Part shown: positions 20,181 to 37,596 of the stretch, piece after piece
Layout: each line of letters opens with the position of its first letter
Numbering within the stretch: the first letter of the stretch is position 1
NCBI GenBank assembly: GCA_963786955.1
Contig: CAWBAT010000006.1
Location: 832,001 to 896,000, forward strand
DNA from: an uncultured Acidimicrobiia bacterium
Lineage (GTDB): Bacteria; Acidobacteriota; Terriglobia; Versatilivoradales; Versatilivoraceae
Direction of reading: 5' to 3'
Length of the DNA: 64,000 nt
The notes under the pieces: model-generated
The model's input: the letters and a program-made list of their open reading frames with translations, nothing else
Database searches by the model: none
What the model was told of the DNA's origin: nothing
Program-made: the position numbers and the translations under genes

Positions 20181-20195
20181 GGGGAATGATTGAAA

Positions 20196-21593
20196 CTAGC
20201 GGGATATCTTTCGCTTGATATCGACGCTAAGCCTTTTCACTTTTGAGTTTAAGGTGGAAAGAGGGACTCCAAACTTCTCGGCGGCTTCCGTCTGGCTCCA
20301 GTTCACGCTTTCTAGCATCTGGATGATCACCTTTCTTTCAAAGGTATCCACAATATCAAAAAGAGACTGTCCATTGTTGATCGGGATTTCGTCCATTTGC
20401 AAGCGCGAAACCGGAGCAATAATGTGACCCGGGACCATTTCAGGAATAATTTCACTGCCTGGCGCCAAAACGACGCCACGCTCAATAACATTCTCAAGCT
20501 CTCGAACGTTTCCGGGCCAATCATAGTCAATCAGAGCCTTGAGAACATACGGAAGCACGCGGCACGGGGGTCTGTCATTCTCTTCAGCGAATTTCTTAAT
20601 GAAATGATCAACCAATAAGGGAATATCTTCCCGTCGATCCCTGAGCGGAGGCAACTCCACGGAGATGACGTTCAAGCGGTAGTAGAGATCGTCTCTGAAC
20701 CTTCCTTGTTCCACGAGCTGCTTCAAGTCCACGTTGGTCGCGGCAATGATGCGGGCATCCACTTTGATCGTTTCGATTCCACCAAGACGCATGAATTCTT
20801 TTTCCTGCAACACCCGCAATAATTTGGCCTGCGTCTCCAGGCTGATGGTTCCGATCTCATCGAAGAAGATCGATCCTCGGTCCGCAACTTCAAACAAGCC
20901 TTTCTTTGAGGAAACCGCGCTGGTAAAAGCGCCACGAACATGTCCGAAAAGGGTACTCTCGAGAAGATCCGTCGGGAGGCTTCCACTGTTCACCGTAACG
21001 AAGGTATTTTCAGACCGAGGGCTATTGGTATGAATCGCCTTGGCGATCAATTCTTTGCCCGTTCCGCTTTCTCCCTGGATGAGCACAGTCGTCCGGCTTT
21101 GTGCGACATGAGAGACCAGGTCGAACACTTTGAGCATTTTCTCGCTCTTGCCGATGATATTCGAGAATCCATACCTCTGCTTCAGGGCCCTCTTGAGTTC
21201 ACGGTTTTCGACTTGGAGCCGGCGCTGCTGAATTCCATTCTTAATATCCAGTAGCAACTTCTCATTGTCCCAGGGCTTGGTGACATAATCTGACGCACCC
21301 GCCTTTATAGCGCTCACGGCGTTCTCAATAGTGCCGAAGGCGGTAATCATGATAATGGCCGTCTCCGGAGAAATCTGGTGGATCTCCTTAAGGACTTCCA
21401 ATCCATTTCTGTCTGGCATCATGACGTCGAGTAGAATCAAGTCAAAGAGTTCCGATTCCACCCGGCGGAGGCCTTCGGTGCCACTATCCGCCAGCGTCAC
21501 CCTGTAATTGGCATCCGACAGCAGCAGGTCCAGGTTTTCCCGGATGGCAACTTCATCGTCCACGACCAAAATAGATCCACCTTGATTAGACAT
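20196..21593 (-). CDS. Sigma-54-dependent response regulator (NtrC/AtoC family: receiver, AAA+, HTH)
   Basis: ILVVDDE, LLDVMMP, GESGTGKE, LFGHVRGAFTSA (GAFTGA variant), WPGNVRELEN, Fis-type HTH. Confidence 0.95.
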   Translation of the reverse strand: MSNQGGSILVVDDEVAIRENLDLLLSDANYRVTLADSGTEGLRRVESELFDLILLDVMMPDRNGLEVLKEIHQISPETAIIMITAFGTIENAVSAIKAGASDYVTKPWDNEKLLLDIKNGIQQRRLQVENRELKRALKQRYGFSNIIGKSEKMLKVFDLVSHVAQSRTTVLIQGESGTGKELIAKAIHTNSPRSENTFVTVNSGSLPTDLLESTLFGHVRGAFTSAVSSKKGLFEVADRGSIFFDEIGTISLETQAKLLRVLQEKEFMRLGGIETIKVDARIIAATNVDLKQLVEQGRFRDDLYYRLNVISVELPPLRDRREDIPLLVDHFIKKFAEENDRPPCRVLPYVLKALIDYDWPGNVRELENVIERGVVLAPGSEIIPEMVPGHIIAPVSRLQMDEIPINNGQSLFDIVDTFERKVIIQMLESVNWSQTEAAEKFGVPLSTLNSKVKRLSVDIKRKISR

Positions 21594-24429
21594 TGGCCAC
21601 TTTCCTCGGAGCCGGGAGTTCTAGGACGAAGCGAGTCCCTTTCCCAGGAGTCGAGTCCACAATGATTTTTCCTGAATGTTCCTGAATGATTCCATAACTC
21701 ACCGAGAGTCCAAGGCCGGTTCCCCGCCCCACTTCTTTCGTCGTATAAAACGGGTCGTATATTTTCTTCAGGTTCTCTTCGGAGATCCCCATGCCGGAGT
21801 CCATGATCTCAACTCGCAGCACAGAGTCAAAAAGAGATGTCTTTACCAAAAGCTCTCCTCCCTCAGGCATGGCGTCTTTAGCGTTAATAAACAAATTAAG
21901 GAAAACTTGTTGCAGCTTTCCGGCGTTACCAAACACCTGGAGAGTTGAACTCCCAAATTCTTTCTTAGCCTTCACCTTGGCCGTTTTGAACTGATGCTCA
22001 AGCAGAGAGAGGGTATCCGAAATCACCGCATTGAGCTCCACCATGCTGAAATCGCCCCCGCTGGTTCTCGAAAAATTGAGCAGACTATTCACGATCTCGG
22101 AAGCTCTGAAGGACTGTTTGACGATCTTGTCGAGGATCTTGGCTTTTGAGTCTTCGGGCTGATATTGCTTGTAAAGCATCTGGCTGTAGCTGGAGATGAC
22201 AGCCAATGGCGTGTTGACTTCGTGGGCCACGCCGGCCGCCAGCAGGCCGATGGAGGTTAATTTCTCCGTCTGCACGAGCTGGTCCTCAAGCTTGACTCTT
22301 TCGGTCTTGTCATCCAGGATAAGCATCTGGCCGGTAACGCAGCCGTCTTTACCGAGCAACGGGGTTACGGTAATGTCCGCAACCATCAGGTGCCCATTGA
22401 GCCTTAATGGGTACTTATACAGGTTGATCCCCTCCGACTGAGGCGCGCGGTTTTCCCTCATCCGGCCACGGATGAGCTCAACTAGGGATGGCGTAAAATG
22501 ATCGGTTAAGAGCGTGCCCAGAGCCTTGTGCCTCGGAAGATTAACCAACTGCCCCATTTTGGAATTCCAACTTTCGATCCGTTCGTCGAGGCCAAAGACC
22601 AGCACTCCAACGCTGATCGATTCGACAATGCTCTCACTGTAGTCCTTGAGCCTCTGCAACGCTTCAGCTTTTTCCCGGATGGATTCATAGAGTCGGCTAT
22701 TTTCAATGGCGATGGCAACGTAACCCGCAATCGTTTGCAGTAGCTCGACGTCTTCGCTGGTGAGCAGTTGTCCCGAAGTGGTTCGGCCCAACCCAATAAA
22801 TGCAATGGTATGTCCCTTGGTGACGCAAGGCAGATAGTAATTTAAATCCAAGTGGCGTAGAGTCTCGTGAAATTCGGAATTTTCAGATACAAGGTTTCGA
22901 AGATTCTCATAAAAGAGATATCCCTTCGCTAATGTGGGACGAGCAGGATCGAGGAATCCAAGATTCGCCAGGTCTGCACTCCGCAGGAACTGGCTCACTC
23001 CAAGGGACTTGACGAGTTGGAATTGTTCTGGGTCTGTTTCATTCGCCAGAAATATTCCGATTTTATCCACCGAAAGAGTCTGGCTGATTCTCTCGACGAC
23101 AAGATCCAGCAATTGCTTGAGATGGACTTCCGCACCTAAGGTTTTTCCAAATTCAATCAGCGTCTGGCGATAGTCATAGTGGTCCCGGTAAAAGTACTTG
23201 TCGACTCTCGTTTGGATCCAATTCCGCAGTGGTGAAAAAATAAAGGCCGCTACAACCAGCGAAATGATCACCCAGATCCGGTTTGCACCCGAGGCCCGAA
23301 AAACTTCACTCACCACACCAATCAATACAAAATAGAATCCAACAACAGTCAGCGAAGCAAGGGTGGCGGCGACACCGCGCTTAAAGATAATATCAACGTC
23401 CATCAAACGGTACTTGATGATAGCATATCCGAAAGTCAGCGGAATCAGGACGAGAGGGAATACCGAAAGCTCCATCCAGAAGGACGGAATCACCCCATTG
23501 AAGTAGGGAAGCGCGTAAAGAAAGAAAAAGGGGAAGGTCCCAAACGTCGTGCCGATCACAATCCACTTCATCTGCTGTCGCAGCGTTTGAATCTGACTCG
23601 TCCGATAGGTGTGGTACAAAGCAAAGACGCCCAAGACGAAAAAGAGCGCAAAGTGAAGGGTATGAATCTTGTCCAGGAGAATGCGGATCTTGAGCGGAGC
23701 CTGGAAGAAATTCAGCCCCCCCGAAATGAACAGAACATGCGTGACCAGCAGAATAATTGCAGGAACATAAAGCAGCAATAAGACCAATGGCAGTCGCTGA
23801 ATGCTTTTTTTTCGCTCCGGGAAGCTCAGGCAAAAATGCAAAAACAACGGGGGTAAAAGAAGTAGCGCTATCGCATCAAGCCAGTAAACCGTCCAATCAA
23901 ACTCGTTGAGTTTGTTCGTATAGGAATACGTACACATGACAAAAGACGCAATACAAATGGTGTAAAAATGGAATGCACCTTTCGCCTGCCAGCGACGCTG
24001 AAAGATAAATATTCCAATGAACAGATAGAGGAATCCAACCACCTCCAGAAATCTCTTGAAGCGAAGTTGATTGTCCTGCGGTGAGACGATTAGAGTTGTG
24101 CTGATTTGGGTGCCATTACGCGAGATGGAGTAGGTGGCTTTCGACCAGACACCCAGATCATAAAGGATCTTTGTCACATCGGTAGCTGATGCGGTTCTCC
24201 TGTTGTTTATAGACAGGAGCAGGTCTCCGCCATGAATGCCCGCCCGGTCTCCGGGACCACCTTCCTCGACAATGAGAGCTTTGAGACCTCGATTCGTAGC
24301 CACCCACCCGCACCCATCGTCGGGAGTGACATATTTGGCCTTCTGAAAACTGTTGATGAGACCTAACACGGTCAACACCGTCGTGATCAGAACGATCGAA
24401 CTCGTCTTGAAACTGAATCTAGTAAACAT
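21586..24429 (-). CDS. Membrane sensor histidine kinase: periplasmic PDZ, multi-TM, GAF, PAS, HisKA/HATPase
   Basis: GGPGDRAGIHGGDLLLSIN (PDZ), about 8-9 TM helices, GAF (AIAIENSRLY), AHEVNTPL H-box, N/G boxes; overlaps the regulator start. Confidence 0.92.
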   Translation of the reverse strand: MFTRFSFKTSSIVLITTVLTVLGLINSFQKAKYVTPDDGCGWVATNRGLKALIVEEGGPGDRAGIHGGDLLLSINNRRTASATDVTKILYDLGVWSKATYSISRNGTQISTTLIVSPQDNQLRFKRFLEVVGFLYLFIGIFIFQRRWQAKGAFHFYTICIASFVMCTYSYTNKLNEFDWTVYWLDAIALLLLPPLFLHFCLSFPERKKSIQRLPLVLLLLYVPAIILLVTHVLFISGGLNFFQAPLKIRILLDKIHTLHFALFFVLGVFALYHTYRTSQIQTLRQQMKWIVIGTTFGTFPFFFLYALPYFNGVIPSFWMELSVFPLVLIPLTFGYAIIKYRLMDVDIIFKRGVAATLASLTVVGFYFVLIGVVSEVFRASGANRIWVIISLVVAAFIFSPLRNWIQTRVDKYFYRDHYDYRQTLIEFGKTLGAEVHLKQLLDLVVERISQTLSVDKIGIFLANETDPEQFQLVKSLGVSQFLRSADLANLGFLDPARPTLAKGYLFYENLRNLVSENSEFHETLRHLDLNYYLPCVTKGHTIAFIGLGRTTSGQLLTSEDVELLQTIAGYVAIAIENSRLYESIREKAEALQRLKDYSESIVESISVGVLVFGLDERIESWNSKMGQLVNLPRHKALGTLLTDHFTPSLVELIRGRMRENRAPQSEGINLYKYPLRLNGHLMVADITVTPLLGKDGCVTGQMLILDDKTERVKLEDQLVQTEKLTSIGLLAAGVAHEVNTPLAVISSYSQMLYKQYQPEDSKAKILDKIVKQSFRASEIVNSLLNFSRTSGGDFSMVELNAVISDTLSLLEHQFKTAKVKAKKEFGSSTLQVFGNAGKLQQVFLNLFINAKDAMPEGGELLVKTSLFDSVLRVEIMDSGMGISEENLKKIYDPFYTTKEVGRGTGLGLSVSYGIIQEHSGKIIVDSTPGKGTRFVLELPAPRKVANV

Positions 24430-24473
24430 AGCTGCTTGCGCTCGGGCCAAACGAGGATTTCACGAATACCAAG

Positions 24474-24490
24474 TGCAGTTTTAATGCCAA
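24474..24490 (-). promoter_or_regulatory. Sigma-54 -24/-12 promoter of the kinase-regulator operon
   Basis: Minus strand TTGGCATTAAAACTGCA (GG-N10-GC); IHF-like TATTAACAATTTA at 24527-24539. Confidence 0.7.
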
Positions 24491-24580
24491 TACAACCATC
24501 GAGCGATATATAGTTAAGTTAAATATTATTAACAATTTAACAAGACTTCAAGAGATCATCTCAAAGCCAAATATTCTAGG

Positions 24581-24621
24581 TATACAAATTTTTGTATAAT
24601 ATTGATACGAAAAATTGTATC
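24581..24621. promoter_or_regulatory. Tandem palindromic enhancer (UAS) candidates
   Basis: ATACAAATTTTTGTAT (24582-24597) and ATACGAAAAATTGTAT (24605-24620), about 100-125 bp upstream of the -24 box. Confidence 0.7.
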
Positions 24622-24669
24622 AAAAAGATAATTAAAAACTTATTGAAATTTTCTGGGCTGAAGGGTCAT

Positions 24670-26406
24670 TTAGAACTTGAGCATTAAGCCGCCTCGAACC
24701 GAACGAGATGGCGAAATAAACTCAATTCGTCGGATGTAAGGAGAGTTGTAGACATCGAGGGAGTTCTTGGCGAGCAGGTTTCGCATCTCGAACTGAGCTT
24801 CGAGTTTTCCGGGAATAAATCTTCCCACGTAAGGAATCGCCTGGGCAATCGTGACACTGACACCTGGAGAGGCCGAATCAAAATTCTCCTGATAGGGGTC
24901 AATCAGAGTGATGGGGTCTCCGGAGATCCAACGATACATGGCGGAGAGGTACGTTCCTGTGCTCGGGATTTGGGACCGCAAGTTGGCAGTTAAAACGTGG
25001 AAGTTTTGACTGCTGGCGAAATCATTAACACCCGTGAGATTTACTCCACCCCCATAGGTATAGCCGAACAACCCTTCCAGTCGAGGGGAGAAGCGGCGCT
25101 GGTAGGCAACCCGAACCCCACGGCTCGTTGAATTGGGTTCAAAGGAAGAAGCAAAAAAAATACTTTGATTGTAGGGAGACAATCGATCGCTGTAGTATCC
25201 GGCCACCACCCGTGAGTGCGAGCTGAGTTCCTGTTCCGCACTGAACTCTGAATGAAGGATGCGGCTTGTCCCAAGACTCAAGGGATATCCATATTCATGC
25301 TGAAAGGGCATCGAGAGAGTGACCGTCTTCCCTTCCTCCACCTCAACCACCTTTTCCAGATGAGGCAAGGACGAAGTCCGGAGATAAGTGAAAGAAGTCT
25401 TGGACGTCGGTCTAAAATGAGCTCCCAGTTTCGGCCGGACTCGGGGAGAATTCGCAGCAGGATCCGACAATTGAATTTCAGTCCCGTAGAGTAGAGACAG
25501 GTGAAAAGGCAATCGAATCTCGTCCTGCAATTCCAAATTGTAGACACTCATCCGTCCCGCACTTCGGTTTACCACGGGGGTGTAGGTATCGGGCAAATAC
25601 GGCAGCATACCCATGCTGATCCGAACTGTCGAATTGTGAAATCCATTTGAATCCGTGAACCGGACCAGTGAATCGACTTCTGCATATCCAGAGCCGGAAA
25701 CAGCGCCTGCCAGCACAAGGCTGGTATTCGGGTTGAGTTGTTTGGCAATCGCAAACTCGGTGAAAGTGCCCCCCACACCAGCCAGATCAGGGTCTCCATC
25801 GTACGATGAAGCGTATACGCGGAAAGAGCCGCGAAATCCTTTTCCTGTGCGGGCCGGTTCATCCACACCGTCAGAAGTGGATTGACCCGTATCCTGCCTG
25901 GAGTCTGATTCAAATACGCGAAGAATGGGGCGTGTCGAAGAAGCCGCGCGAAGAACGGACTCGATATCTTCTGTTTCCGTCGCGGGCTGCGGCTCCCGAG
26001 AGACTCCAAGAATAGATTGAAGGTACAGACTTTCGAGAGTCAGGTTGAGGCTGGCGATCTTATCGGCCACCACCTTGATCCCGGAGCGGATCAAAGGAGG
26101 ATAATTGGCGGCGCTCACTTTGAGAGCGTAAAGCCCCGGAAGCAAACCTTTGATTTCAAATCTTCCGGTACTGTCGGTTATTGCGGTCTTAACCACCTTC
26201 GAACTGAATTGCCCCTCCAGTAGAATCACGGCGATCCCGTCCAGTGGTGTTCCGCGGGAATCTTGAATCGTTCCGGCTAGACCGCCCGCCAGCGAAGCCG
26301 CTCTCAATTGGCCGCAGACTATGACGAGCAGGAAGGGGATGACAGCAAAAGTTACTTTCGGAACTCGCATGAATCCTCGACTCAATAATAAGGTCCACAC
26401 CTTCAT
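24670..26406 (-). CDS. Outer-membrane beta-barrel protein with N-terminal carboxypeptidase-regulatory-like domain
   Basis: Signal peptide; G.I.DSRG.PL...TDSTGRF...LLPG.Y; amphipathic strands; C-terminal ...GGLMLKF. Confidence 0.75.
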   Translation of the reverse strand: MKVWTLLLSRGFMRVPKVTFAVIPFLLVIVCGQLRAASLAGGLAGTIQDSRGTPLDGIAVILLEGQFSSKVVKTAITDSTGRFEIKGLLPGLYALKVSAANYPPLIRSGIKVVADKIASLNLTLESLYLQSILGVSREPQPATETEDIESVLRAASSTRPILRVFESDSRQDTGQSTSDGVDEPARTGKGFRGSFRVYASSYDGDPDLAGVGGTFTEFAIAKQLNPNTSLVLAGAVSGSGYAEVDSLVRFTDSNGFHNSTVRISMGMLPYLPDTYTPVVNRSAGRMSVYNLELQDEIRLPFHLSLLYGTEIQLSDPAANSPRVRPKLGAHFRPTSKTSFTYLRTSSLPHLEKVVEVEEGKTVTLSMPFQHEYGYPLSLGTSRILHSEFSAEQELSSHSRVVAGYYSDRLSPYNQSIFFASSFEPNSTSRGVRVAYQRRFSPRLEGLFGYTYGGGVNLTGVNDFASSQNFHVLTANLRSQIPSTGTYLSAMYRWISGDPITLIDPYQENFDSASPGVSVTIAQAIPYVGRFIPGKLEAQFEMRNLLAKNSLDVYNSPYIRRIEFISPSRSVRGGLMLKF

Positions 26407-26414
26407 GAACGAAA

Positions 26415-28052
26415 CTATCGAACCTGAAACTTCGCAACTGGGGAAATCGTGTGCTTGCTTAAATTGTCAGTCACGTTCACCACAAGACTGTAAGCCCCTG
26501 GCGCAAGGTCTTTCAGCGGAACGAATTTCTCAAAAGTCATCTGCTGAGCCGCTCCCGCCAATTTGTCCTGATCTTCTGTAAATCGTGCAATTTCCTTGTC
26601 CCCCTGCTTCAGCGAATATTCTATCGTTGCCGAAGGCTTCTTGGTTTTTTCATCAATCCCGAGATTATAGACCTGGAAATAAATCCCCATCGTCTGACTG
26701 CGGTTAAAAACATCATTGACGTTCGGAAAAATTTTGGAGCTCCCGATAATAAACTGCCCGGCGGCAGCCTGCTTCATGGAGAGCTTCTCGATATTATCTG
26801 CCAAAATAATACTGCTGGTCGCCAATTTATCCTCTTCAAACTTGGGAACCGTCAACCCTTTGTAAACCGTACCCACGTTGCCACTGTTCAGATCCTTCAG
26901 CACGAGTTCCAGCTTGTAGAGCCCCGAGCGCAGAGGAATAGATTTTTGGTAGAGCGACCTTTTTTCCAGGGATTGTTTGAATAAAGAATCCGGAACATCC
27001 TGTGCCACGACGTCTTCAAAGACCTGGACCACGCGGCCCGTAATAGTCGAGAGCCGGCCAAAAATATTGACCTGGGCACGTTGCACGCCTTCCTTGTTTT
27101 GGAACGTCATGTCCTTGTTGTAAATCTGCACCGTAATGGGCGTCAAGACGGTATCATCCGTGATCTTGATAAAATCCGTCCGATATTCAAACGGCATCAA
27201 GTTATAGGACAGCTTCGTGTTGACCACGGTCTCCAGATCCTTGAACTTCACCTGGGGCGGTCTTTGGAGCGCAACGTACTGTTGGAGACGGGTAAACGGA
27301 TCATAGGCCTGCCCGGCAGACCCCGACATCGTCCTGCCGATAGTCATCCCATCACCTCGGGAAAACCGATCCCCTTTGCTTGCCATTCCCATCTGTTCCA
27401 ATTGAGTCAAGCCCGCGTTGGGGACATTCGTTAAGGCGTCTTTCTCTCCGGGATCCAAGGCAATACGGTACTCGCCGGTACTCGTCCGATCGACAAATTC
27501 AATCATGACCTCATTGCCCAGGTTCGGTCCTTCAAGATAGCGATAACGCCAAACCTCAAATGGGAAAGTCGTCGTCTCTCCTCCGCCCTCTTCATACGGG
27601 CGCATATAGGGCCCACCGGTCGGATGAGAATCGATTTCATCGGGCGGACCCCAAGTAATATAAATTCTGCCGCGATCGGTCTTCCAACCAGGCCACCCAG
27701 ACGGGAACCGTTCATTGGCATAAGCAATGCGGCGGTAGTGTTCGTCTCTGAATTCATTTTCCATCGTATCGGGCGACGGATCCCTTCGTAACCAGAACTG
27801 CTCAATAAATTGGTAACGCTCGTCATCGGTCGTTAACTTCTTGTAAGCGGACCGCTCTTCGGGGGTGATGATATAGGCCACATCTTCATTGAGCCACTTC
27901 TTGAGATATTGGTCGGAGGTTTCATTCCGAAGCGACTTTTCTTTATTCTTATCGCGCTTGTTATTGTCACCGGCGGGGACAGAAACAGTTAGGACAAACC
28001 CGATGAGAAAGCCGGAAATCACGAGTCGTCGGAAACTTGAATTCGTTTTCAT
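26415..28052 (-). CDS. GWxTD domain-containing protein
   Basis: WL.EDV.YIIT.EE, FW.RRDP, EHYRRIAYANE, GWKTDRGRIYI.WGPPD; signal peptide; Ig-like C-terminus. Confidence 0.92.
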   Translation of the reverse strand: MKTNSSFRRLVISGFLIGFVLTVSVPAGDNNKRDKNKEKSLRNETSDQYLKKWLNEDVAYIITPEERSAYKKLTTDDERYQFIEQFWLRRDPSPDTMENEFRDEHYRRIAYANERFPSGWPGWKTDRGRIYITWGPPDEIDSHPTGGPYMRPYEEGGGETTTFPFEVWRYRYLEGPNLGNEVMIEFVDRTSTGEYRIALDPGEKDALTNVPNAGLTQLEQMGMASKGDRFSRGDGMTIGRTMSGSAGQAYDPFTRLQQYVALQRPPQVKFKDLETVVNTKLSYNLMPFEYRTDFIKITDDTVLTPITVQIYNKDMTFQNKEGVQRAQVNIFGRLSTITGRVVQVFEDVVAQDVPDSLFKQSLEKRSLYQKSIPLRSGLYKLELVLKDLNSGNVGTVYKGLTVPKFEEDKLATSSIILADNIEKLSMKQAAAGQFIIGSSKIFPNVNDVFNRSQTMGIYFQVYNLGIDEKTKKPSATIEYSLKQGDKEIARFTEDQDKLAGAAQQMTFEKFVPLKDLAPGAYSLVVNVTDNLSKHTISPVAKFQVR

Positions 28053-28122
28053 ACCTTAACGTTCAGAGTCTGGGTAGTTTAGGAAAACCAGGAATGAAAA
28101 AACCTGTCTATATCACTGCAAT

Positions 28123-28150
28123 ATTATAGAACAGTAAACCTTGGAGTCAA
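28123..28150 (-). promoter_or_regulatory. Putative sigma-70 promoter for the GWxTD gene
   Basis: Minus strand TTGACT-N16-TATAAT. Confidence 0.55.
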
Positions 28151-28156
28151 TCGCAA

Positions 28157-28260
28157 AATTGGAGGGCGGAACTCCGTGATGCCGTCCAAAGTAGGGGCGA
28201 AGCATTCGAAGATAGAGGGTGAATCGGTTTATGCCTTGCGAGTGAATGCTTCGCCCCTAC
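28157..28260. repeat. REP-containing block duplicated at 33659-33762
   Basis: AATTGGAGGGCGGAACTC...GTAGGGGCGAAGCATTC...GAATGCTTCGCCCCTAC. Confidence 0.8.
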
Positions 28261-28264
28261 TTTC

Positions 28265-28295
28265 AAAAAAAAGGATGGACTCGTTGGCCCATCCT
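28265..28295 (-). terminator. Rho-independent terminator
   Basis: Minus strand AGGATGG...CCATCCT followed by a T-run; paralogous to 33834-33864. Confidence 0.65.
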
Positions 28296-28409
28296 TAAAA
28301 GATTTCGTTCAGTTAGCAAGAACCACGTCCATCACTGCAACACTCGGTACCAGCGGGTGGAACCAGGAACTTCGCGCTACTTCAGGAACCGAACAAGCAA
28401 GCCTCCCTT

Positions 28410-28557
28410 CTACTGCAGATCTTTCACAGTCTCATGTGCCTTTATTGACCCGACCAGCAGAAAACCAGCCTGATCGCAGAACCACAACTCGGAAAGGAAA
28501 CGACCATTGCCGACTTTATCGAACACGAGCCGGGATGGGGCGCTTGAGCTGTCGCAC
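28410..28557 (-). pseudogene. Start-less relic paralogous to the N-terminal domain of the neighbouring cytochrome c gene
   Basis: Translates DSSSAPSRLVFDKVGNGRFLSELWFCDQAGFLLVGSIKAHETVKDLQ*, versus DSSSTPSRVVFDKVANNRFLSEVWFRDQDGYLLVGS...HETV; in-frame stop just upstream. Confidence 0.75.
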
Positions 28558-28587
28558 TCGCGTGTCTACTTGGCGGGCGTTACGACC

Positions 28588-29304: not shown

Positions 29305-29351
29305 GTGTATACTCCTCTCTATGATTTCAATTATTCTCTTTATCTGAGTTT

Positions 29352-32300
29352 TCAGAAGATGAACTTGACGCCAAACCGGGCCGAAAATCCAGGATTAAAT
29401 TGGTCATACTGCCCGTATGTTGGGTCGACCGCCCAGTTCTTGGTTGGGTCCAGTGAATTCGGATCTGAACTCAGTGACGGATCTTGTGCGTACTCCGTCT
29501 GAGAAAGCAAAGTACGCCAGTTGTAGCCGTTAAGGAGGTTGACAGGGGTCAAATCAATAGCCGAACTGGAATCACGATATCGGGTAATGATGTTCTGCTG
29601 ATAGCGCGCCGTCTTCTGGTTAAAAATGTTAATGATGTTCATTTCGAAATGCAGTCTCTTCGTTTCGCCCAGTTTGATATCCTGAGCGATTAACAGGTTC
29701 GTATAGTTCAGGAAAGGCGTCCGACCCGCATCGGCACGTCCGTTAACCATGATGGGAATTTGATTCAATTCCTCCACACGAGTCGTAATGGGAGTCCCGC
29801 TGCCTGCATAAAAGACAGGGCCAAGTTGCGTTCCCCACTTGAACTGATACGACCCGTACACTTTTAGAACATGGGGGCGGTCCGTTTCAAGAAGTCCGTA
29901 AAGGTACTGCCCATTGGAATCGAACATGATAAGGTCAGCATCATAATCCCGGTTGGCATTGCCGCCAGGACGAGCCACAAAAGAATAAGGAGTTTGAGAT
30001 GCCGTCCAGGTTATATTGGGGAGCCCTCCATTCACGACTTCATCCGTGCTGCTTAGACCAGCATAGTTCCCCCAAAGTCGGCTGTATGTATAGTTGGCTG
30101 ACAAGAACCAGTTGTTACTAAACCGGCGGGTGAGCGAGAGCTGCAATGCATCATACTCTCGTTTAGGTTGCGGCATGGGGAAATCCGGAGTGGCTCCATA
30201 ATGGTTATCTTCAATGGTAAAGCGGCCCTCGCCGGGATTACCCTCAGTATAGACTTCATTCCCATTAACCAGCCGCCCGATGTCTTCGATGGTCCGACCC
30301 AGTCGGCTGCGAACATAGGCGGCCGAGAACACCAACTGAGGCTTGACTTCCCAATCAAATCCAACCGACGCATTGTCCACATACATCGGCTTGATGCCAG
30401 GATCGAGGGAATCGGGACCAAACTGAGGGACCCGGTGATCCTGATAGGACCCTGGCGTAGATGACCATAAATTCCTCCCTTGCAAATTGTTTAGGCCAAG
30501 GGAAAAAATATCCAGGGTATCGAGGGAGTACCACCACTCCTTCCAGGTGTCTCCACCAAACGCCCCCCGCACTAGCTCATACTTGGTCCAGTCGTAGAAA
30601 CGTCCCCAACTGCCGTATAATTTCATTTTGCCGTTACCCAGCACATCCCAGCTCAGACCCAATCGGGGCGCGAGCTTGGCACCAAATCCAAACGAAAAGG
30701 CGTAATCCTTGACATCCCGATAGAAGGAAGGAACTTTCTCATTTTCCGTGCGCAGTCCCAGGCTCAAAGTCAATCGAGGACGAATCGTCCATTGGTCTTG
30801 AACGAAAAGGTTAAAAATGCCGCCGCCTGCGGAACCCGCTGTGCCGATTTGTCTGACGCGGTAGTATCCATAGGTCCCAGTGCCCGTTTCACCGGTGTAG
30901 GAACTCGTGTAGGAGCGATTCCAGTACATCGCCACGTTATAACCACCCTGATAATTAACATCCATCTTGTTGACTACTCGCTGGTATCCAAAGCCAGCTT
31001 TCAAGTTATGCACCCCACCCATATTGAACGTCTTGCTATAGTCAACTTGTCCGAAGGCGCGGCTTGTCGTGTCGTAGTTTGCCACCTCGGTCAGTGGTAC
31101 ATCGAAAGAGCCAGTGGGTTTTTGTAGTTCCACGGGAATCTCGAAAGGTAGTCCGATTGCCGAAATATTGTAACGGGTCTGGTGCTTGGAAGGGGCATTG
31201 AGGTCTTTGTAATTGTCCCAGAAATAGCCGCCTCGGAGGTTTAGCAAGCTGGTCGGAGATAAGGTGATATCCATTGTCCCCGTAAAATTGTTCTTGGGTA
31301 AAGACCAACCCTGTGCCCGATTAGACTCCAGGGCTGCTGCAGAGTTAACACTGCAATTGTCACAATAACCAGTGAAGGCAGGCAGCAATCCTGTTCTTTT
31401 CGTTGTGGTATAAAGCCAGGCGAAATTGGTAAGGATGCGGGGAGTGATGTTCCAGGAGAGTTTGTTGAAGAGGTTGTAATAATTTGTTTTACTGTAAAAT
31501 ATGCTTGGAGTCGCCCCACTATCAAGCAGAATATCTTGTGTCCGCCGGCCCCATTGGGGGCTAAAGCCAGTGTAAAAATAGAGTTTATTCTTGATGAGAT
31601 ACCCACCCAATTCCCCTCCAACTTCATTGAAGTGATCTTGGATCTTGTTATCTTGGAAGTATTTTGTTTCGAGTTCACCCGCAGGGTCGGTTAATATTCT
31701 AGGGGTTGGCAAGGCATTGAGTGGAGAACCGCTAAAGTACCAATACACATCCCCATGGAACGCATTGCCGCCTGACTTGGTGACTGCGCTGATCACTCCT
31801 CCCAAGGCGCCGCCATATTCGGCTTGTATCCCGGAAGTTTTCACCTGCACTTCCTGCAGAAACTCGTAGACCGCGTCTTGGCGAGAATCGCCATTAATAA
31901 GCCCAGTGGTGGAAATACCATCAATCGTGAAGTTGTTCTCCGCGGCACTGGCCCCATTAATCTGGATGCCGCCTTCAATGACCCCCGAATTGACACCGGG
32001 GGACAGCGAAGCCACATCTTGGAAGGAACGGCCTTTGGGCATGAGGCTGAATTCTTCGGAAGACACGTTGCTTCCCATAGCGATGCTCTGAGTGTCAATC
32101 ACTGGGGCACCTTCTGTAATCAGGACAGTCTGTTCCAGAGTTCCTACTTGAAGGGTAATGTCAATCTTCAAAACCTTGCCGAGGAGCATGATGACATCGG
32201 GAAGCTGATATTTCGAAAATCCTTTCAATTCCCCAGTCACCGTGTAGCGGCCCGGCTCCAGGCTGCGCAGCACATAAAGGCCTTCGCTTGTAGATTCAGT

Positions 32301-32528
32301 CGTCGTGATACGATTCGTAACTTGGTTGGTCGCCGTAATCGATGCTCTCGGCAAGACAGCGCCAGAACTGTCTTTCACAACTCCTTCGATAGTGCCAGTT
32401 TTCTCCTGTCCAAACAGGTTCTGACTTGAAAACAGGACAAAACTTATGATCAATAGAAATGCTAGCGTTAGAATTACAAAATCTTTCCGAATCAAGCACT
32501 CGTTTCTTGCGGAAGCATTGATTCTCAT
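29352..32528 (-). CDS. TonB-dependent receptor with carboxypeptidase-regulatory domain (Oar-like), copy 1
   Basis: G.I.GVVKDSSGAVLP, plug motifs (ENNFTIDG, AEYGGALGGVISAVTKSGGN.FHG), C-terminal RFGVKFIF; AAGGAG RBS favours ATG 32528. Confidence 0.93.
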   Translation of the reverse strand: MRINASARNECLIRKDFVILTLAFLLIISFVLFSSQNLFGQEKTGTIEGVVKDSSGAVLPRASITATNQVTNRITTTESTSEGLYVLRSLEPGRYTVTGELKGFSKYQLPDVIMLLGKVLKIDITLQVGTLEQTVLITEGAPVIDTQSIAMGSNVSSEEFSLMPKGRSFQDVASLSPGVNSGVIEGGIQINGASAAENNFTIDGISTTGLINGDSRQDAVYEFLQEVQVKTSGIQAEYGGALGGVISAVTKSGGNAFHGDVYWYFSGSPLNALPTPRILTDPAGELETKYFQDNKIQDHFNEVGGELGGYLIKNKLYFYTGFSPQWGRRTQDILLDSGATPSIFYSKTNYYNLFNKLSWNITPRILTNFAWLYTTTKRTGLLPAFTGYCDNCSVNSAAALESNRAQGWSLPKNNFTGTMDITLSPTSLLNLRGGYFWDNYKDLNAPSKHQTRYNISAIGLPFEIPVELQKPTGSFDVPLTEVANYDTTSRAFGQVDYSKTFNMGGVHNLKAGFGYQRVVNKMDVNYQGGYNVAMYWNRSYTSSYTGETGTGTYGYYRVRQIGTAGSAGGGIFNLFVQDQWTIRPRLTLSLGLRTENEKVPSFYRDVKDYAFSFGFGAKLAPRLGLSWDVLGNGKMKLYGSWGRFYDWTKYELVRGAFGGDTWKEWWYSLDTLDIFSLGLNNLQGRNLWSSTPGSYQDHRVPQFGPDSLDPGIKPMYVDNASVGFDWEVKPQLVFSAAYVRSRLGRTIEDIGRLVNGNEVYTEGNPGEGRFTIEDNHYGATPDFPMPQPKREYDALQLSLTRRFSNNWFLSANYTYSRLWGNYAGLSSTDEVVNGGLPNITWTASQTPYSFVARPGGNANRDYDADLIMFDSNGQYLYGLLETDRPHVLKVYGSYQFKWGTQLGPVFYAGSGTPITTRVEELNQIPIMVNGRADAGRTPFLNYTNLLIAQDIKLGETKRLHFEMNIINIFNQKTARYQQNIITRYRDSSSAIDLTPVNLLNGYNWRTLLSQTEYAQDPSLSSDPNSLDPTKNWAVDPTYGQYDQFNPGFSARFGVKFIF

Positions 32529-32871
32529 GATTTTCATTCTCCTTTTATCCAAGATAATCGGATTGGAAACATACTTTCAGTGATGGCTAAGATTCCGGAA
32601 AACGAGTTCCAAGAAACAACCATACGGCGTTATTAGAATGAATAAAGAGTTAGGGTCGAGATCTTTTAAGGATGCCCGGGAAATTTCTACTCTCATTAGA
32701 GAGACCCTAAGAATCCAACAATTTCAACAGGTAAGGGGTAATTGTGATCCCGTTTAATCGGGTATTTCTTGGTGTTTCTTATTTTTAAGGTACTTTGAAT
32801 TAGTATCCTGGAGAGATGAAGAAATCCGGGACTATGATGAACTATATAATTCCCAGCTTGTTATAAGACAG

Positions 32872-32888
32872 AGCAAAATATTCGCCAA
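32872..32888 (-). promoter_or_regulatory. Sigma-54 promoter of TBDR copy 1
   Basis: Minus strand TTGGCGAATATTTTGCT (GG-N10-GC); IHF-like TTTCAACTGGTTG at 32916-32928. Confidence 0.7.
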
Positions 32889-32995
32889 ACTAGGGTACTT
32901 TGTTAGGATTAAATGCAACCAGTTGAAAAGACTGATGAATTTCGCTACCTTCAAAACTTTGAGATTTTGTTATCTTGACTAGTTGACTCAATTTT

Positions 32996-33011
32996 ATACA
33001 ATTTTTCGTAT
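32996..33011. promoter_or_regulatory. Palindromic UAS candidate
   Basis: ATACAATTTTTCGTAT, the exact reverse complement of 24605-24620. Confidence 0.7.
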
Positions 33012-33158
33012 GCTTATGTATGAATATACGAGAAATAGGTTCTGTCAGGCATACACTTGGCGTTACTCGAATGAGGTCTGGATTCAGTAGCCTGGAAAGA
33101 TGAAGAGAGTTGGGACCTATGAGATGAGATACTCAAAACCCTAACCCATTGTTAACAC

Positions 33159-33216
33159 TGCAAAACATCTACCAAACTGGTGCTATTGTTTCGGAATTAA
33201 CTGCAACCAGTTGAAA
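33159..33216 (-). promoter_or_regulatory. Second, duplicated sigma-54 promoter/IHF module upstream of TBDR copy 1
   Basis: TTGGTAGATGTTTTGCA plus TTTCAACTGGTTG; about 33090-33390 is a degenerate copy of about 32805-33040. Confidence 0.55.
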
Positions 33217-33480
33217 AGACTGATGAATTTTGTTACGGTCTGGACTTCCTTCTTGGATCTATTTGATCTAATGGGGGAATTCCGCAAATGCCTGAAGGGT
33301 ATATGGCTCAAGGTGCGCCTTCTGGCCCACCGTTTGACTCAATTTTCTATCTTTCCTATGCTTCCGTTAGAATATACAAAAGAAATAGATTCCCGCATCT
33401 TCACTGATTTCATTTCTCTCTGTCCAAGTTTCTTAGATGAATTCGAGACCTTGTGTGCGTTGCGTTTTGACTGTCAATGT

Positions 33481-33552
33481 GGTGGAGCGGGCGCGTGGGA
33501 CCGCTGTCCCCCTGCGCACGCTCATTAACGCGCGACGGAGCCCTTGTTCCAC
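33481..33552. repeat. GGTGGAGCGGGCGC...GTTCCACC REP-like palindrome
   Basis: Same arms at 46519-46573. Confidence 0.65.
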
Positions 33553-33658
33553 CCTCCGTAACTAAGAAGGAGTGAAGACATTCTGATTCACGGTGAGACG
33601 CCGCCATTGTCACATTCCATATTCGGCCTCGTGAAACTCGGCCATCCCGAGATTTGCC

Positions 33659-33762
33659 AATTGGAGGGCGGAACTCTGCGATGCCGTCCAAAGTAGGGGC
33701 GAAGCATTCTGTGACAGGCGGTGAATCTATTTATACGTTGCGAGTGAATGCTTCGCCCCTAC
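33659..33762. repeat. REP-containing block, copy 2
   Basis: Near-identical to 28157-28260. Confidence 0.8.
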
Positions 33763-33833
33763 AAATTCGACGGTGTCAGGATATGATGTAATGCTCAATA
33801 TCTATCAAAAGCTTGGCGCCCAGGGCAACTTTC

Positions 33834-33864
33834 AAAAAAAAGGATGGGCCAGGCGGCCCATCCT
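33834..33864 (-). terminator. Rho-independent terminator of TBDR copy 2
   Basis: Minus strand AGGATGGGCC-GCCT-GGCCCATCCT followed by a T-run. Confidence 0.85.
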
Positions 33865-33894
33865 GTTGATTTCCTACATTGAGTTCCATCCCAG

Positions 33895-36800
33895 CTAGAA
33901 AGTGAACTTCACTCCGATTCGGCCTGTGAAGCCCGGGTTAAAGATCGCCGCCATCCCGTATCTTGGATCCAGCGCCCTTCCAGTTAACCCGTCAGTTGTC
34001 TTGGCAACCAAATCTTGGTAGTTGTAACCATTCGCCAAATTGGTGCTGTCCATGCTGGGCTGCGAAGATGCTCGATTTTGATAATTATAGTCCGGGAATG
34101 TGTATCGATTCGTTTTCTGGTTGAATACATTGATCGCATTGAATTCAAACCGCAGCGTTTTTTGTTCCCCTAACTTAAATTCCTGTGCGATCAGGAAATC
34201 TGTCTGGTTCAGGAAGGGAGTCCGTCCTAAGTCTCCCCGGCCATTCACAAAGAGTGGAATTGTGTTATTTTCCCACATATAGGTCGAAATGGGGGTACCA
34301 CTCCCCCCGTAATAGAAACCGCCAAATTGAAGTCCAAACTTAAATTGGTAAGACCCATAAAGCTTAAAAACGTGGGGACGGTCCGTGGCAAGGCGTCCCT
34401 TTACGTCAAGAGTGCCATGCGAATCCCAGAACAAGTCGTACAAGTCATAGGCCCGGTGATTATTGGCACCCTCACGTGAAACATCACCGCCGAGTTGCTG
34501 AGCGACTGGCGAAGAGAAGCCCAGCGTCGGTGGCCGGATTTCGTCAGAATTGGCCAATCCTGAATAGTTCCCGTAGAGCCTGCTATAGACATAACTGGCA
34601 CTGGCCAACCAGCCATTGCCGAAGCGTCTCGTCAGCGACAATTCCATCGCATCGTAAGTCCTTATGGGTAGTGGAGTCGGAAAAGGGGCGGTTGCGCTTC
34701 CGAAGGTTGGGGTAATAGCAGCTTGGCCTATTCCGGGATTCCCTTCGATATAAGTTTCATCGCCGTTCTTGATCGTCCCGATGTCCTCAATGGTCTGGTT
34801 GAGTTTACTGTGAATATAGTGGCCAGAGAAAACCAAGTTGGGTCTCAACTCCCACTCCAGCCCAGCATTAAACTGATCTTCACTCATGGGCTTGATGCCT
34901 GGGTCAACACCCTCGAAATCAATTACCCTGCGATCACGGTAAGAGCCGGGCACGGAATTCCAAAGGTTTCGACCAGGCAGATTGCCATTGCCCAGCGAGA
35001 AGACATCTGTCGTATCCAGCGAGCGATACTGTATGTGCCAGATGTCTCCACCATAACTAGCGCGGGCCAGTTGATACTTGGTCCAGTCGTAAAGGCGCCC
35101 CCAACTCCCAAAGACCTTCATTTTCCCGTTTCCGAACACATCGAAATTTATCCCGAGCCGCGGCGACATTTTGGAGCCGAAGCCAAATTTAAACGCATAT
35201 TCCTTAATAGCACGATTGAACGACGGCAGTCCTTCATTTTCCGTCCGAATGCCCAGGCTCAGAACGACTCGAGGAGAGACTCTCCACTGGTCCTGGACGT
35301 ACAGGCTGATGACACTGGCGCCGGTCGTGCCACGAGTCCCAAAATCGTCCGATTCGTAGTACCCGTATTTTCCTCGATCCGTGATCCCGGTGTTGCGGCT
35401 CGTGAAACTCCTATTCCAAAAAACATAAACGTAACCCCCACCGGGATAGGTCGTGTCCACATTGTTGACGGTCTTCTGATCACCGACTCCTGCTTTCAGA
35501 TTGTGCGATCCCCATCCGGTGAATGCTTTGCTGTAATCCAAATTGACGTAGGTGCGTGTAACCAGATCGTGGTCCGCTCCCTGAACCCGGGGGGTATTGG
35601 TGTAACCAATACCTCCAACCTGCCCCGGAGGGATTTCACTTTCAAAAGGCGTTCCGATGTTTGAGGTTTGGTACTCCACTGCGCTGATGTTAGGTATTCC
35701 GGTGGCATGGTAATCGTCCCAGAAATACCCACCCCTGATGCTGAGCAACGAGGTGGGGTCAAGAGTAAAATTGAGGTTCCCCGTATAACTCGACTGGGGC
35801 GAATAAAATCCCTGCACCTTATTGGGTGCAAGGGCCTTACTGGTGCTGGTGATCCCATTCCCATAAGATCCATTATTGGCAGGGAGCCTGCCAGTAGAGT
35901 AGATAGGCGTGTAAAGCCAGGCGAAATTGGTTGAGATCCGACTCGTGGGATCATATGAGATCTTGGCAAACGACTGCATGTAGAACTGGTCTTGACTGAA
36001 TGAGTCTGGAACAGTACCATTGCTGGTAAGATAGGGGATGGTTCGTCTTTGCCAACGAGGAGAGGACGCCAGGAAAAAGTACAACTTGTTTTTAATCAGG
36101 TAGCCACCCAGTGAACCGCCAACCTCGTAACCGTTATTATCGCCCTTGTTATCCTGGACATAGTATCCAGGGGGGGGGTTATTAGTATTAACCGGATCAA
36201 GAACCAGCCGGCTGACCGGTCCGGCACTGACTGGGGCCCCGCCGTAGTAAAAGTGCGCGTCCCCGTGAAACGCGTTGCCACCGGACTTAGTCACAGCGCT
36301 GATGACCCCTCCTAAGGCTCCTCCATATTCGGCCTCGATCCCGGCGGTTTTCACTTGGACTTCCTGCAAGATATCGAAAATCGCGTCCTGGCGAGATCTG
36401 CCATTGATACCGCTAGCCGTGGAAATCCCATCAATGGTGAAGCTGTTCTCCGCCCCGCTTGACCCGTTAACCTGGAATCCTCCCTCAATCTGTCCGGAAT
36501 TCACGGAAGGCGAGGTGAGCACCAGACCCTGGAAACTGCGGCCCTTCGGCAGTCGATCAAACTCTTCGGAAGAAACGTTGTGGGCAACTGTTGTGCTCTG
36601 TGTGTCAATCATTGGGGGGTTATCCGAAATCTGGACAGCCTGTTCTAGCGTTCCTACTTGAAGGTTCATGTCAATCTTCAAAGTCTTGCCGAGCAGCATG
36701 ATGACATCGGGGAGTTGATATTTCGAAAACCCTTTCAATTCACCAGCTACCGCGTAGCGGCCAGGCTCTAGGTTACGCAGTACGTAAAGGCCGCTGCCTG

Positions 36801-37038
36801 AGCTTTGAGTAGTGATAACGCGGTTCGTGGCTTTGTTGGTTGCCGTTATTGTAGCTCCCGGCAGGACAGCACCAGAACTATCTTTCACAATTCCTTCGAT
36901 ACTGCTGGTTTGCTCCTGTCCAAGCAGACCTTGACTTGAAAACAGGACAAGACACATGATCACTAGTAATGCCAGCGGCAGGATTCCAAAATCTTTCCGA
37001 ATCAAGCACTCGTTTCTTGCGGAAGCATTGATTCTCAT
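33895..37038 (-). CDS. TonB-dependent receptor with carboxypeptidase-regulatory domain (Oar-like), copy 2
   Basis: Same architecture as copy 1, near-identical N-terminus, C-terminal RIGVKFTF. Confidence 0.93.
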   Translation of the reverse strand: MRINASARNECLIRKDFGILPLALLVIMCLVLFSSQGLLGQEQTSSIEGIVKDSSGAVLPGATITATNKATNRVITTQSSGSGLYVLRNLEPGRYAVAGELKGFSKYQLPDVIMLLGKTLKIDMNLQVGTLEQAVQISDNPPMIDTQSTTVAHNVSSEEFDRLPKGRSFQGLVLTSPSVNSGQIEGGFQVNGSSGAENSFTIDGISTASGINGRSRQDAIFDILQEVQVKTAGIEAEYGGALGGVISAVTKSGGNAFHGDAHFYYGGAPVSAGPVSRLVLDPVNTNNPPPGYYVQDNKGDNNGYEVGGSLGGYLIKNKLYFFLASSPRWQRRTIPYLTSNGTVPDSFSQDQFYMQSFAKISYDPTSRISTNFAWLYTPIYSTGRLPANNGSYGNGITSTSKALAPNKVQGFYSPQSSYTGNLNFTLDPTSLLSIRGGYFWDDYHATGIPNISAVEYQTSNIGTPFESEIPPGQVGGIGYTNTPRVQGADHDLVTRTYVNLDYSKAFTGWGSHNLKAGVGDQKTVNNVDTTYPGGGYVYVFWNRSFTSRNTGITDRGKYGYYESDDFGTRGTTGASVISLYVQDQWRVSPRVVLSLGIRTENEGLPSFNRAIKEYAFKFGFGSKMSPRLGINFDVFGNGKMKVFGSWGRLYDWTKYQLARASYGGDIWHIQYRSLDTTDVFSLGNGNLPGRNLWNSVPGSYRDRRVIDFEGVDPGIKPMSEDQFNAGLEWELRPNLVFSGHYIHSKLNQTIEDIGTIKNGDETYIEGNPGIGQAAITPTFGSATAPFPTPLPIRTYDAMELSLTRRFGNGWLASASYVYSRLYGNYSGLANSDEIRPPTLGFSSPVAQQLGGDVSREGANNHRAYDLYDLFWDSHGTLDVKGRLATDRPHVFKLYGSYQFKFGLQFGGFYYGGSGTPISTYMWENNTIPLFVNGRGDLGRTPFLNQTDFLIAQEFKLGEQKTLRFEFNAINVFNQKTNRYTFPDYNYQNRASSQPSMDSTNLANGYNYQDLVAKTTDGLTGRALDPRYGMAAIFNPGFTGRIGVKFTF

Positions 37039-37379
37039 GATTTTCATTCTCCTTTTATCCAAATAAATGGATTGGAAACATACTTTCAGTAATGGCTAAG
37101 ATTCCGAAAAGCGAGTTCCAAAAAGCAACCATACGTGGCTATTAGAATGAATAAAGAGGTAGAGTCGAGATCTCTTGAGGATGCCCTGTAAATTCTTACT
37201 CTCATTAGAGAGAGCCTAAGAATCCAACAATTTCAACAGGTAAGGGTAATTGTGATCCCGTTTAATCGGGTATTTCTTGGTGTTTCTTATTTTTAAGGTA
37301 CTTAGAATTAGTATCCTGGGAAGATGATGAAATCCGGGACTAGAATGAACCATATAATTCCGGGATCGACATACGACGA

Positions 37380-37396
37380 TGCAAAATATCTACCAA
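37380..37396 (-). promoter_or_regulatory. Sigma-54 promoter of TBDR copy 2
   Basis: Minus strand TTGGTAGATATTTTGCA (GG-N10-GC); IHF-like site at 37424-37436. Confidence 0.7.
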
Positions 37397-37503
37397 ACTA
37401 GGGTACTTTGTTAGGATTAAATGCAACCAGTTGAAAAGACTGATGAATTTCGCTACGGTCAAAACTTTGAGACTTTGTTATCTTGACTAATTGACTCAAT
37501 TTC

Positions 37504-37549
37504 ATACAAATTTTCGTATGATTCGAATAAAAAATACGAAAAAAAATAT
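37504..37549. promoter_or_regulatory. Palindromic UAS candidate plus a weaker second site
   Basis: ATACAAATTTTCGTAT (37504-37519) and ATACGAAAAAAAATAT (37534-37549). Confidence 0.65.
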
Positions 37550-37596
37550 ATTTATTGGATTCTATCTTCTCTGAAAAATAAGGGTTCGTCGCTTAG

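Follow-up and report, generated by a model that had tools for sequence, protein, structure and literature searches.

The window, by which we mean the whole 64,000-nucleotide stretch of DNA analysed here (C6:832001-896000 of genome G000), belongs to the genome of an uncultured acidobacterium, of 5.65 Mb in 9 contigs with 51% G+C. It carries a putative regulatory system built of a sensor histidine kinase, an NtrC-type sigma-54 activator and two TonB-dependent receptors, all genes of which lie on the minus strand. In order of transcription the locus reads receptor 2, receptor 1 with the gene for a cytochrome c domain protein, a GWxTD-domain protein, a 578-residue protein with a CarboxypepD_reg domain, the 954-residue kinase, the activator, and pta (Table 1). 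Because the same palindrome stands about 110 bases upstream of both kinds of promoter, that of the kinase operon and those of the receptor genes, the activator likely switches on both itself and a set of receptors.

Table 1. Genes, promoters and other features of the locus, by position in the window.
Feature	Position	Strand	Remarks
pta, phosphate acetyltransferase	19182-20180	minus	Pfam PTA_PTB 404 bits; 15 bp behind activator gene
NtrC-type sigma-54 activator	20196-21593	minus	Pfam Response_reg 111.8, Sigma54_activat 227.6, HTH_8 32.7 bits
Sensor histidine kinase	21586-24450	minus	transmembrane helix, periplasmic PDZ, about 7-8 transmembrane helices, GAF, PAS, HisKA, HATPase
Sigma-54 box of kinase operon	24474-24489	minus	TGGCATTAAAACTGCA, GG-N10-GC
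Two perfect 16-bp dyads, predicted activator sites	24582-24597 and 24605-24620		92 and 115 bp upstream of kinase box
Exported 578-residue protein	24670-26406	minus	N-terminal CarboxypepD_reg and predicted plug-less outer-membrane beta-barrel (Pfam and model)
GWxTD-domain protein	26415-28052	minus	Pfam; NCBIfam TIGR04514 122.7 bits; conserved neighbour
Terminator-like hairpin and T-run	28271-28296	minus	10 pairs then TTTTTT; predicted to close the receptor 1/cytochrome c unit
Cytochrome c domain protein	28588-29304	minus	Pfam Cytochrome_CBB3, Cytochrom_C; 47 bp behind receptor 1
TonB-dependent receptor 1	29352-32552	minus	OMP_b-brl_4 128.5, CarboxypepD_reg 59.4, Plug 20.9 bits (below 23.9 cut-off)
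Receptor 1 5' leader, about 330 nt	32529-32860	minus	conserved with receptor 2 and C9 receptor leaders
Sigma-54 box of receptor 1	32872-32887	minus	TGGCGAATATTTTGCT, GG-N10-GC
Conserved AT-rich 29-bp block	32915-32943	minus	IHF-like core TTTCAACTGGTTG; 41 bp upstream of receptor 1 box
Receptor 1 proximal perfect dyad	32996-33011		108 bp from box
Receptor 1 distal partial dyad	33026-33041		keeps TCGTAT
Decayed receptor-promoter duplicate (T1up)	33081-33350	minus	direct repeats D1-D3; sigma-54 box 33159-33174
Terminator-like hairpin behind receptor 2	33841-33864	minus	
TonB-dependent receptor 2	33895-37062	minus	OMP_b-brl_4 101.6, CarboxypepD_reg 58.4, Plug 24.3 bits
Sigma-54 box of receptor 2	37380-37395	minus	TGGTAGATATTTTGCA, GG-N10-GC
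Receptor 2 proximal dyad	37504-37519		108 bp from box
Receptor 2 distal partial dyad	37534-37549		30 bp upstream of proximal dyad; keeps TCGTAT

Dyads and sigma-54 boxes at the locus

With ATACRAWWWWTYGTAT as the strict dyad motif and sigma-54 boxes scored out of 11, four copies at no more than one mismatch were found in the window, where 100 shuffles give an expectation of 0.02. Exact ATACRAWWWWTYGTAT occurs four times in the whole genome, and all four copies lie within this locus. Every strict dyad has a good GG-N10-GC box 92-115 bp downstream of it; the local boxes score 9/11, their GG and GC doublets being separated by 10 bp within TGGCAC-N5-TTGCW. The initial annotation of this DNA had proposed such boxes at three promoters, accompanied by three 16-bp palindromes, and had pointed out that the palindromes at 32996-33011 and 24605-24620 are exact reverse complements. 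Boxes and palindromes were all recovered, the boxes on the minus strand, and the reverse-complement relation is exact. Its further statement that the kinase promoter is otherwise not homologous to the receptor promoters agrees with our comparison, in which the 16-mer is the sole significant match (E 1.7e-5); the promoters of receptors 1 and 2 share 93% identity over 143 bp. The sites that it listed stand, but the list was incomplete, as it left unmentioned the dyads at 24582-24597, 33026-33041 and 37534-37549, the box at 33159-33174 and the copies elsewhere in the genome.

The two dyads of the kinase promoter are 23 bp apart, and paired dyads occupy the same place in family-level orthologues. 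Both dyad blocks of the receptor 1 promoter are conserved in the orthologues of the related genomes G001 and G002, and in alignments of the receptor promoters the dyads appear as conserved islands. The dyads fall, more often than by chance, within the range of about 80-150 bp upstream that is expected of sigma-54 enhancers. On comparative grounds, the dyads and the predicted sigma-54 promoters are real and conserved, in a layout typical of sigma-54 enhancers.

The initial annotation also gave each promoter an IHF-like site. The motif itself (WATCAANNNNTTR, with at most one mismatch) occurs in 6 of 9 promoters and in 25 of 58 random AT-rich 100-mers; alone it is no better than AT-rich background, and the IHF element is weak. 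The 29-bp block with an IHF-like core is conserved in five of the six aligned receptor promoters, which are related to one another. A second, truncated receptor promoter, T1up, lies upstream of receptor 1. It retains a box and the IHF-like block, together with the beginning of the leader; its dyad is degenerate, and about 65 bp have been inserted. T1up was probably left behind by the tandem duplication from which receptors 1 and 2 arose.

Candidate regulon members elsewhere in the genome

The regulon had been described as self-contained, and a scan of the genome for the palindrome near sigma-54 boxes had been proposed as a check. We enumerated relaxed dyads with an IUPAC motif, requiring a box of at least 9/11 at 80-140 bp, and took the reversed genome as control. 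At two mismatches or fewer there are 36 dyads in the genome, 8 of which have such a box, whereas none of the 14 in the reversed genome does; at three mismatches or fewer the figures are 18 of 369 and 0 of 203. The eight strong sites fall at seven promoters, which are those of the kinase operon and of receptors 1 and 2, and four on other contigs, at C3:245660, C5:480865, C5:530845 and C9:195262. The genes behind these four other-contig promoters (C3:245952, C5:481157, C5:530379 and C9:194794) all encode receptors with CarboxypepD_reg and OMP_b-brl_4 domains, with barrel scores of 152-819 bits. Two more loci are likely members by their sequence: C7:32338, with two 3-mismatch dyads and a box of 10/11, and C5:269857, with two dyads at 112 bp and a weak box of 7/11, each having a pair of TTTCGTAT-type sites, spaced 20 bp, at the usual distance from the box. 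Since the dyad-plus-box layout thus precedes at least four, and probably six, further receptors on C3, C5, C7 and C9, the regulon is not self-contained.

The layout is present in 8 of about 18 large CarboxypepD_reg-type receptor frames, and the proximal dyad of the receptor promoters ends 103-112 bp from the box. Receptors bearing it do not form one clade, as the tree needs 5 label changes, at least 3 of them forced by well-supported branches, and one regulon receptor has a close paralogue without the layout. Members and non-members of the regulon could not be told apart by the receptor C-termini, almost all of which end in ..KFxF.

Five other sites that combine a 3-mismatch dyad with a box of at least 9 (C3:297120, C3:355465, C4:178673, C5:1186912 and C7:196046) lie in coding-like sequence with no suitable downstream gene, and were set aside as chance matches. 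Also left out of the regulon was the palindrome ATAGGAAATTTCCTAT at C6:1009983, whose sequence is different and whose distance from its box is 189 bp. This palindrome has perfect arms, the box downstream of it (TGGCACTTTTTTTGCG; C6:1009983-1010203) is a strong sigma-54 box, and the site may be the enhancer of another activator.

Conservation of the pair and of its promoter

Each of 40 relatives has one clear orthologue of the kinase/activator pair, at 58-98% identity, with paralogues at 51% or less, and in all 20 relatives whose loci were fetched the kinase precedes the activator. Orthologues at 57-63% identity occur in genomes labelled Acidobacteriaceae, Bryobacteraceae and Solibacteraceae. 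From these comparisons the pair is conserved across the class Terriglobia. Throughout the orthologue group (at least 57% and up to 98% identity) the helix-turn-helix (HTH) of the activator is near-invariant (SQTEAAE..PLSTLN[SQ]K[VI]KRL), and the next activator group, at 55% or less, differs in its HTH.

The kinase gene has a sigma-54 box just before it in 16 of 21 loci and, in a wider set, in 42 of 53 usable orthologous loci. An exact TAC-N8-GTA was found 70-165 bp upstream in 16 of the 42 boxed loci, against 16 of 840 shuffles, and its distances recur (79-81, 92, 99-102 and 115 bp); often the sites are paired, with about 21-23 bp between them. Because of this frequency of boxes and dyads, autoregulation of the operon is probably ancient, and the autoactivation put forward in the initial annotation gains support from the comparison. 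We note that related genomes are not independent, so that counts of orthologous loci overstate the support.

Pattern searches extend the layout to receptors outside G000. A strict pattern of half dyad, gap and box has 20 matches in 41 genomes, against 1 for the reversed pattern, and in 11 of the 20 the gene behind the match is that of the kinase or of a receptor (G000, G001, G002, G003 and G017). A second pattern has 16 matches and none in the control; these include a receptor in G037, which is of another family, and a site in G033 before the genes of a 183-residue protein of no known family and a major facilitator superfamily transporter. Box and dyad occur together at one sampled receptor locus of G013 and at one of G020. 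In G037 a box is present in 5 of 10 sampled receptor loci, and four of these five have dyads 94-95 bp upstream, two with a second at 114-115 bp. The G037 dyads are of a CTACC...GGTAG flavour, the same flavour occurs twice before the G037 kinase gene, and the G037 activator differs from that of G000 at two residues of the recognition helix. Such lineage-matched drift of the dyads is the best indirect evidence for a single protein reading both classes of site.

The activator, the kinase and the input side

In its domain content the activator is an NtrC-class enhancer-binding protein, with receiver, AAA+ domain and a predicted Fis-type HTH, the last at 32.7 bits against an HTH_8 cut-off of 22. 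The receiver contains DLILLDVMMPD, with D55 as phospho-acceptor, and the Walker motifs are present. The loop that contacts sigma-54 (residues 219-224) reads GAFTSA; its Thr is kept, and the Ser at the fifth position, which is usually Gly, is found in most orthologues. Five other G000 activators vary at the same position (GAFTNA, GAFTDA twice and GSFTSA among them). The genome encodes 22 sigma-54 activators in all, together with one rpoN and three HU/IHF-family genes.

The true start of the kinase is likely the ATG at 24429, and residue 7-8 is where the majority of tblastn alignments to orthologues start. Its structure model has a predicted local distance difference test score (pLDDT) of 73.6. 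The PDZ domain scores 27.7 bits against a cut-off of 27 (Pfam PDZ_6), and its model superposes on the PDZ domains of DegS, HtrA, DegP and AlgW over 84-93 columns (E 3e-5 to 5e-4; root-mean-square deviation 1.4-2 A). A DDGCGW loop (G-x-G-W) occupies the carboxylate-binding place, and D38, G39 and W42 are invariant in 15 orthologues. With a PDZ domain of DegS/HtrA type predicted in the periplasm, the signal is therefore probably a peptide C-terminus. The multi-helix membrane domain matched no Pfam family at E up to 5; HisKA_7TM was considered for it and rejected, being carried by just 12% of the members of one cluster. The "envelope" label of the initial annotation appears plausible from the PDZ sensor and the predicted targets.

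Neighbouring genes, leaders and repeats

In 25 of 80 related loci pta lies behind the activator gene, no terminator-like site was found in the gap between the two, and pta is possibly co-transcribed with the activator. Acetyl phosphate can phosphorylate response regulators, and a functional link between pta and the activator is therefore conceivable. On the other side of the pair, the 578-residue protein is syntenic with the kinase in at least 26 of 80 loci. Its model consists of a beta-sandwich and a plug-less barrel of about 20 long strands, the fold matches only outer-membrane barrels, at a low TM-score of about 0.3, and its end, ...GGLMLKF, agrees with the RGG[IL]xLKF C-terminus kept in relatives. 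Upstream of the GWxTD gene, 11 of 12 positions of a sigma-70-like promoter at 28123-28150 fit the consensus, a match to the consensus only.

The initial annotation had assigned the cytochrome c gene to the receptor 1 unit, and the position of the terminator-like hairpin at which this unit would end agrees with that. Both receptors have an Oar-like build, with N-terminal CarboxypepD_reg, plug and large barrel, and receptor 2 is a close paralogue of receptor 1 and its sister in the tree. Receptor 1 likely starts at the ATG at 32528, where a ribosome-binding site is present, and receptor 2 likely at the ATG at 37038. The receptor 1 leader is 89% identical to that of receptor 2 and 53% identical to that of the C9 receptor, a protein just 29% identical. 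Conserved islands in the leaders (32529-32860, 37039-37368 and L053:6785-7170) include a hairpin-like CCCGATTAAACGGG and a stem just before the ribosome-binding site. No Rfam family matched within 20000-40000 at E up to 1, and covariation in the RNAalifold consensus of five sequences is weak (covariation term +0.72, scattered compensatory pairs); we claim no structure.

After both terminators lies an inverted-repeat element (28160-28265 and 33655-33770) with 17-nt arms and about 36 nt between them. The genome holds 61 copies of the arm at two mismatches or fewer and 9 whole-element blastn matches, and the element looks like a dispersed intergenic repeat of the repetitive extragenic palindromic (REP) or miniature inverted-repeat transposable element (MITE) kind. 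In the metatranscriptomes (4 runs, all assembled contigs; two runs with 5-6% of sampled words, two from a sample that holds the DNA), contigs of other organisms pile up at two G+C-rich stretches, 33481-33522 and 37637-37692, with many loose ends on both sides and a depth of 51.6 in one bin. These stretches are short conserved or repeated elements.

Discussion

It is likely that the local activator binds paired ATACGAAA/TTTCGTAT dyads and thereby activates its own operon and 6-8 dispersed genes for CarboxypepD_reg TonB receptors. That one operator is common to the kinase/activator operon and the two receptor genes of the locus, as the initial annotation had it, is supported by the comparison of promoters, and we infer that the local activator is the binder from its adjacency, its conservation and the lineage-matched flavours of the dyads. 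In the scheme we propose, the kinase would sense a periplasmic cue via its DegS/HtrA-type PDZ domain, probably an exposed peptide C-terminus, such as that of outer-membrane proteins or of imported peptides, possibly in cooperation with the neighbouring conserved outer-membrane barrel, and would phosphorylate Asp55 of the activator. Bound to the pair of dyads some 90-130 bp upstream of the promoter, two dimers of the activator would seed an AAA+ ring, which would reach the sigma-54 polymerase by DNA looping and open the promoter. The targets would be the kinase/activator operon itself, perhaps with pta, and six to eight TonB receptor genes.

Several observations weigh against this proposal. Several of the receptor promoters are paralogous to one another and are therefore not independent cases, and the spacing of the dyads varies (20, 23 or 30 bp, and possibly 14 bp). 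Among the regulon receptors there are truncated or split frames, at C3:245952-249540 (C3:246126; 478 aa and fragments) and C7:32093-32338 (456 aa), which may be pseudogenes or assembly frameshifts. In relatives, 11 of 53 orthologous loci, including a subgroup of the same family, are without a sigma-54 box before the kinase; among ten sampled receptor loci in each genome, G034 has none with a box, G030 has two with a box and none with a dyad, and G003 has none with the layout, though the pattern search found two others there. The contact loop of the activator departs from the canonical GAFTGA. The metatranscriptome contigs cover a small and patchy share of the stretch, without transcript ends. 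Finally, the identity of the binder is drawn from adjacency and conservation in a genome that encodes 21 other activators.

This last point gives room for the strongest alternative, in which the dyads are real enhancers bound by another regulator, one of the other activators or a global nutrient regulator, the kinase operon being just another target. The number of activators encoded is in agreement with such a view, as are G030 and G034, which have the orthologous pair yet sampled receptor promoters without the layout. It is nonetheless unlikely, as none of the other 21 activator loci carries the motif, which is found at this operon only, the dyads at the promoter of the pair are kept across families, the flavour of the dyads shifts jointly at kinase and receptor promoters in G037, and members of the orthologue group hardly vary in their HTH.

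A second alternative, that the palindromes are repressor operators on overlapping sigma-70-type promoters rather than sigma-54 enhancers, takes its appeal from sigma-70-like hexamers that overlap the dyads (for example, on the plus strand, TTGATA-16-TATTAT at 24596-24623 and TTGACT-16-TACAAT at 32975-33002). We regard it as very unlikely, given that the region holds 20 such hexamer matches where 19.7 are expected, that relatives outside the genus lack the -35-like TTGATA, and that the conserved quantity is the distance from the dyad to the sigma-54 box. That the shared motif is a functionless relic of promoter duplication among paralogous receptors, a view prompted by the homology of the receptor 1, receptor 2, T1up and C9 promoters and leaders, is scarcely credible in the face of two perfect copies in the non-homologous kinase promoter, the loss of exactly the dyad from the decayed T1up, the conserved islands that the dyads form in alignments and the scatter of the regulon receptors over the tree.

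Activation of dispersed receptor genes by the local activator would matter beyond this locus. Acidobacteriota are a dominant phylum of soils and sediments and encode dozens of large TonB receptors of unknown cargo, and to our knowledge gene regulation in the phylum is almost unstudied. The present analysis defines an operator, predicts that six to eight receptors form its regulon and brings out a conserved autoregulated pair with an unusual periplasmic PDZ input, so that control of TonB receptor supply in Acidobacteria becomes directly testable. A more ambitious reading is that the outer-membrane barrel and the DegS-like PDZ kinase monitor outer-membrane state or peptide flux and, via one sigma-54 activator and one operator, govern the supply of a whole family of Oar-type TonB transporters in Terriglobia and perhaps in most Acidobacteriota. 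This is rather unlikely; if true, it would be a sigma-E-independent coupling of outer-membrane protein status to transporter expression.

Comparison with known systems

The mechanism, an NtrC-type activator acting from an upstream activating sequence on a sigma-54 promoter, is textbook, and it is the input module and the target set that are undescribed. Our literature search found nothing on this system, its operator, a sigma-54 kinase with PDZ input or the GAFTSA loop, and one paper, PMC3162934, contains no mention of Acidobacteri, TonB or PDZ. By NCBIfam scores, the pair falls outside the AtoSC, NtrBC and ZraSR equivalogs, the activator reaching 467.9 bits for AtoC (cut-off 714), 420.1 for NtrC (TIGR01818; cut-off 558.6) and 396.2 for ZraR (cut-off 760). 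AtoS/AtoC, itself a sigma-54 two-component pair, gives the best-scoring named families; the AtoS score of 261 bits is likewise far below its cut-off of 646, the match spans the PAS domain and kinase core alone (residues 589-949), and there are no ato genes nearby.

In the NtrB/NtrC system of enteric bacteria, the activator combines receiver, AAA+ domain and Fis-type HTH, two dyads lie roughly 100-140 bp upstream of the GG-N10-GC box of glnAp2, and the regulator operon is autoregulated. The present system resembles it in the domains of the activator, the two-dyad layout and the predicted autoregulation. NtrB is soluble and controlled by PII, in contrast to the membrane kinase with a periplasmic PDZ domain found here, the operator sequence is another, and the predicted targets are outer-membrane receptors rather than genes of nitrogen assimilation. 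With DegS, AlgW and HtrA, known from envelope stress pathways of the sigma-E type, the kinase shares, in its model, the PDZ fold, including that of peptide-bound DegS, and the G-x-G-W loop. Unlike these proteins it has no protease domain, the PDZ domain, a putative binder of peptides, being joined via a multi-helix membrane domain to a histidine kinase, and the output would be sigma-54 rather than sigma-E.

Circuits that lead from an envelope or periplasmic signal to transcription of envelope or outer-membrane uptake genes include ZraS/ZraR, FecA-FecR-FecI and the hybrid two-component systems that control SusC in Bacteroides. The likeness lies in this coupling of an envelope signal to envelope or uptake genes, and the difference in that here there is a PDZ sensor, with neither an extracytoplasmic function (ECF) sigma/anti-sigma pair nor a hybrid kinase. 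On the target side, Oar of Myxococcus xanthus, a TonB-dependent transporter that carries a carboxypeptidase regulatory-like domain at its N-terminus, is needed for secretion of the protease PopC (PMC6434023). The receptors of the regulon share this domain build, and it is by build that we liken them to Oar.

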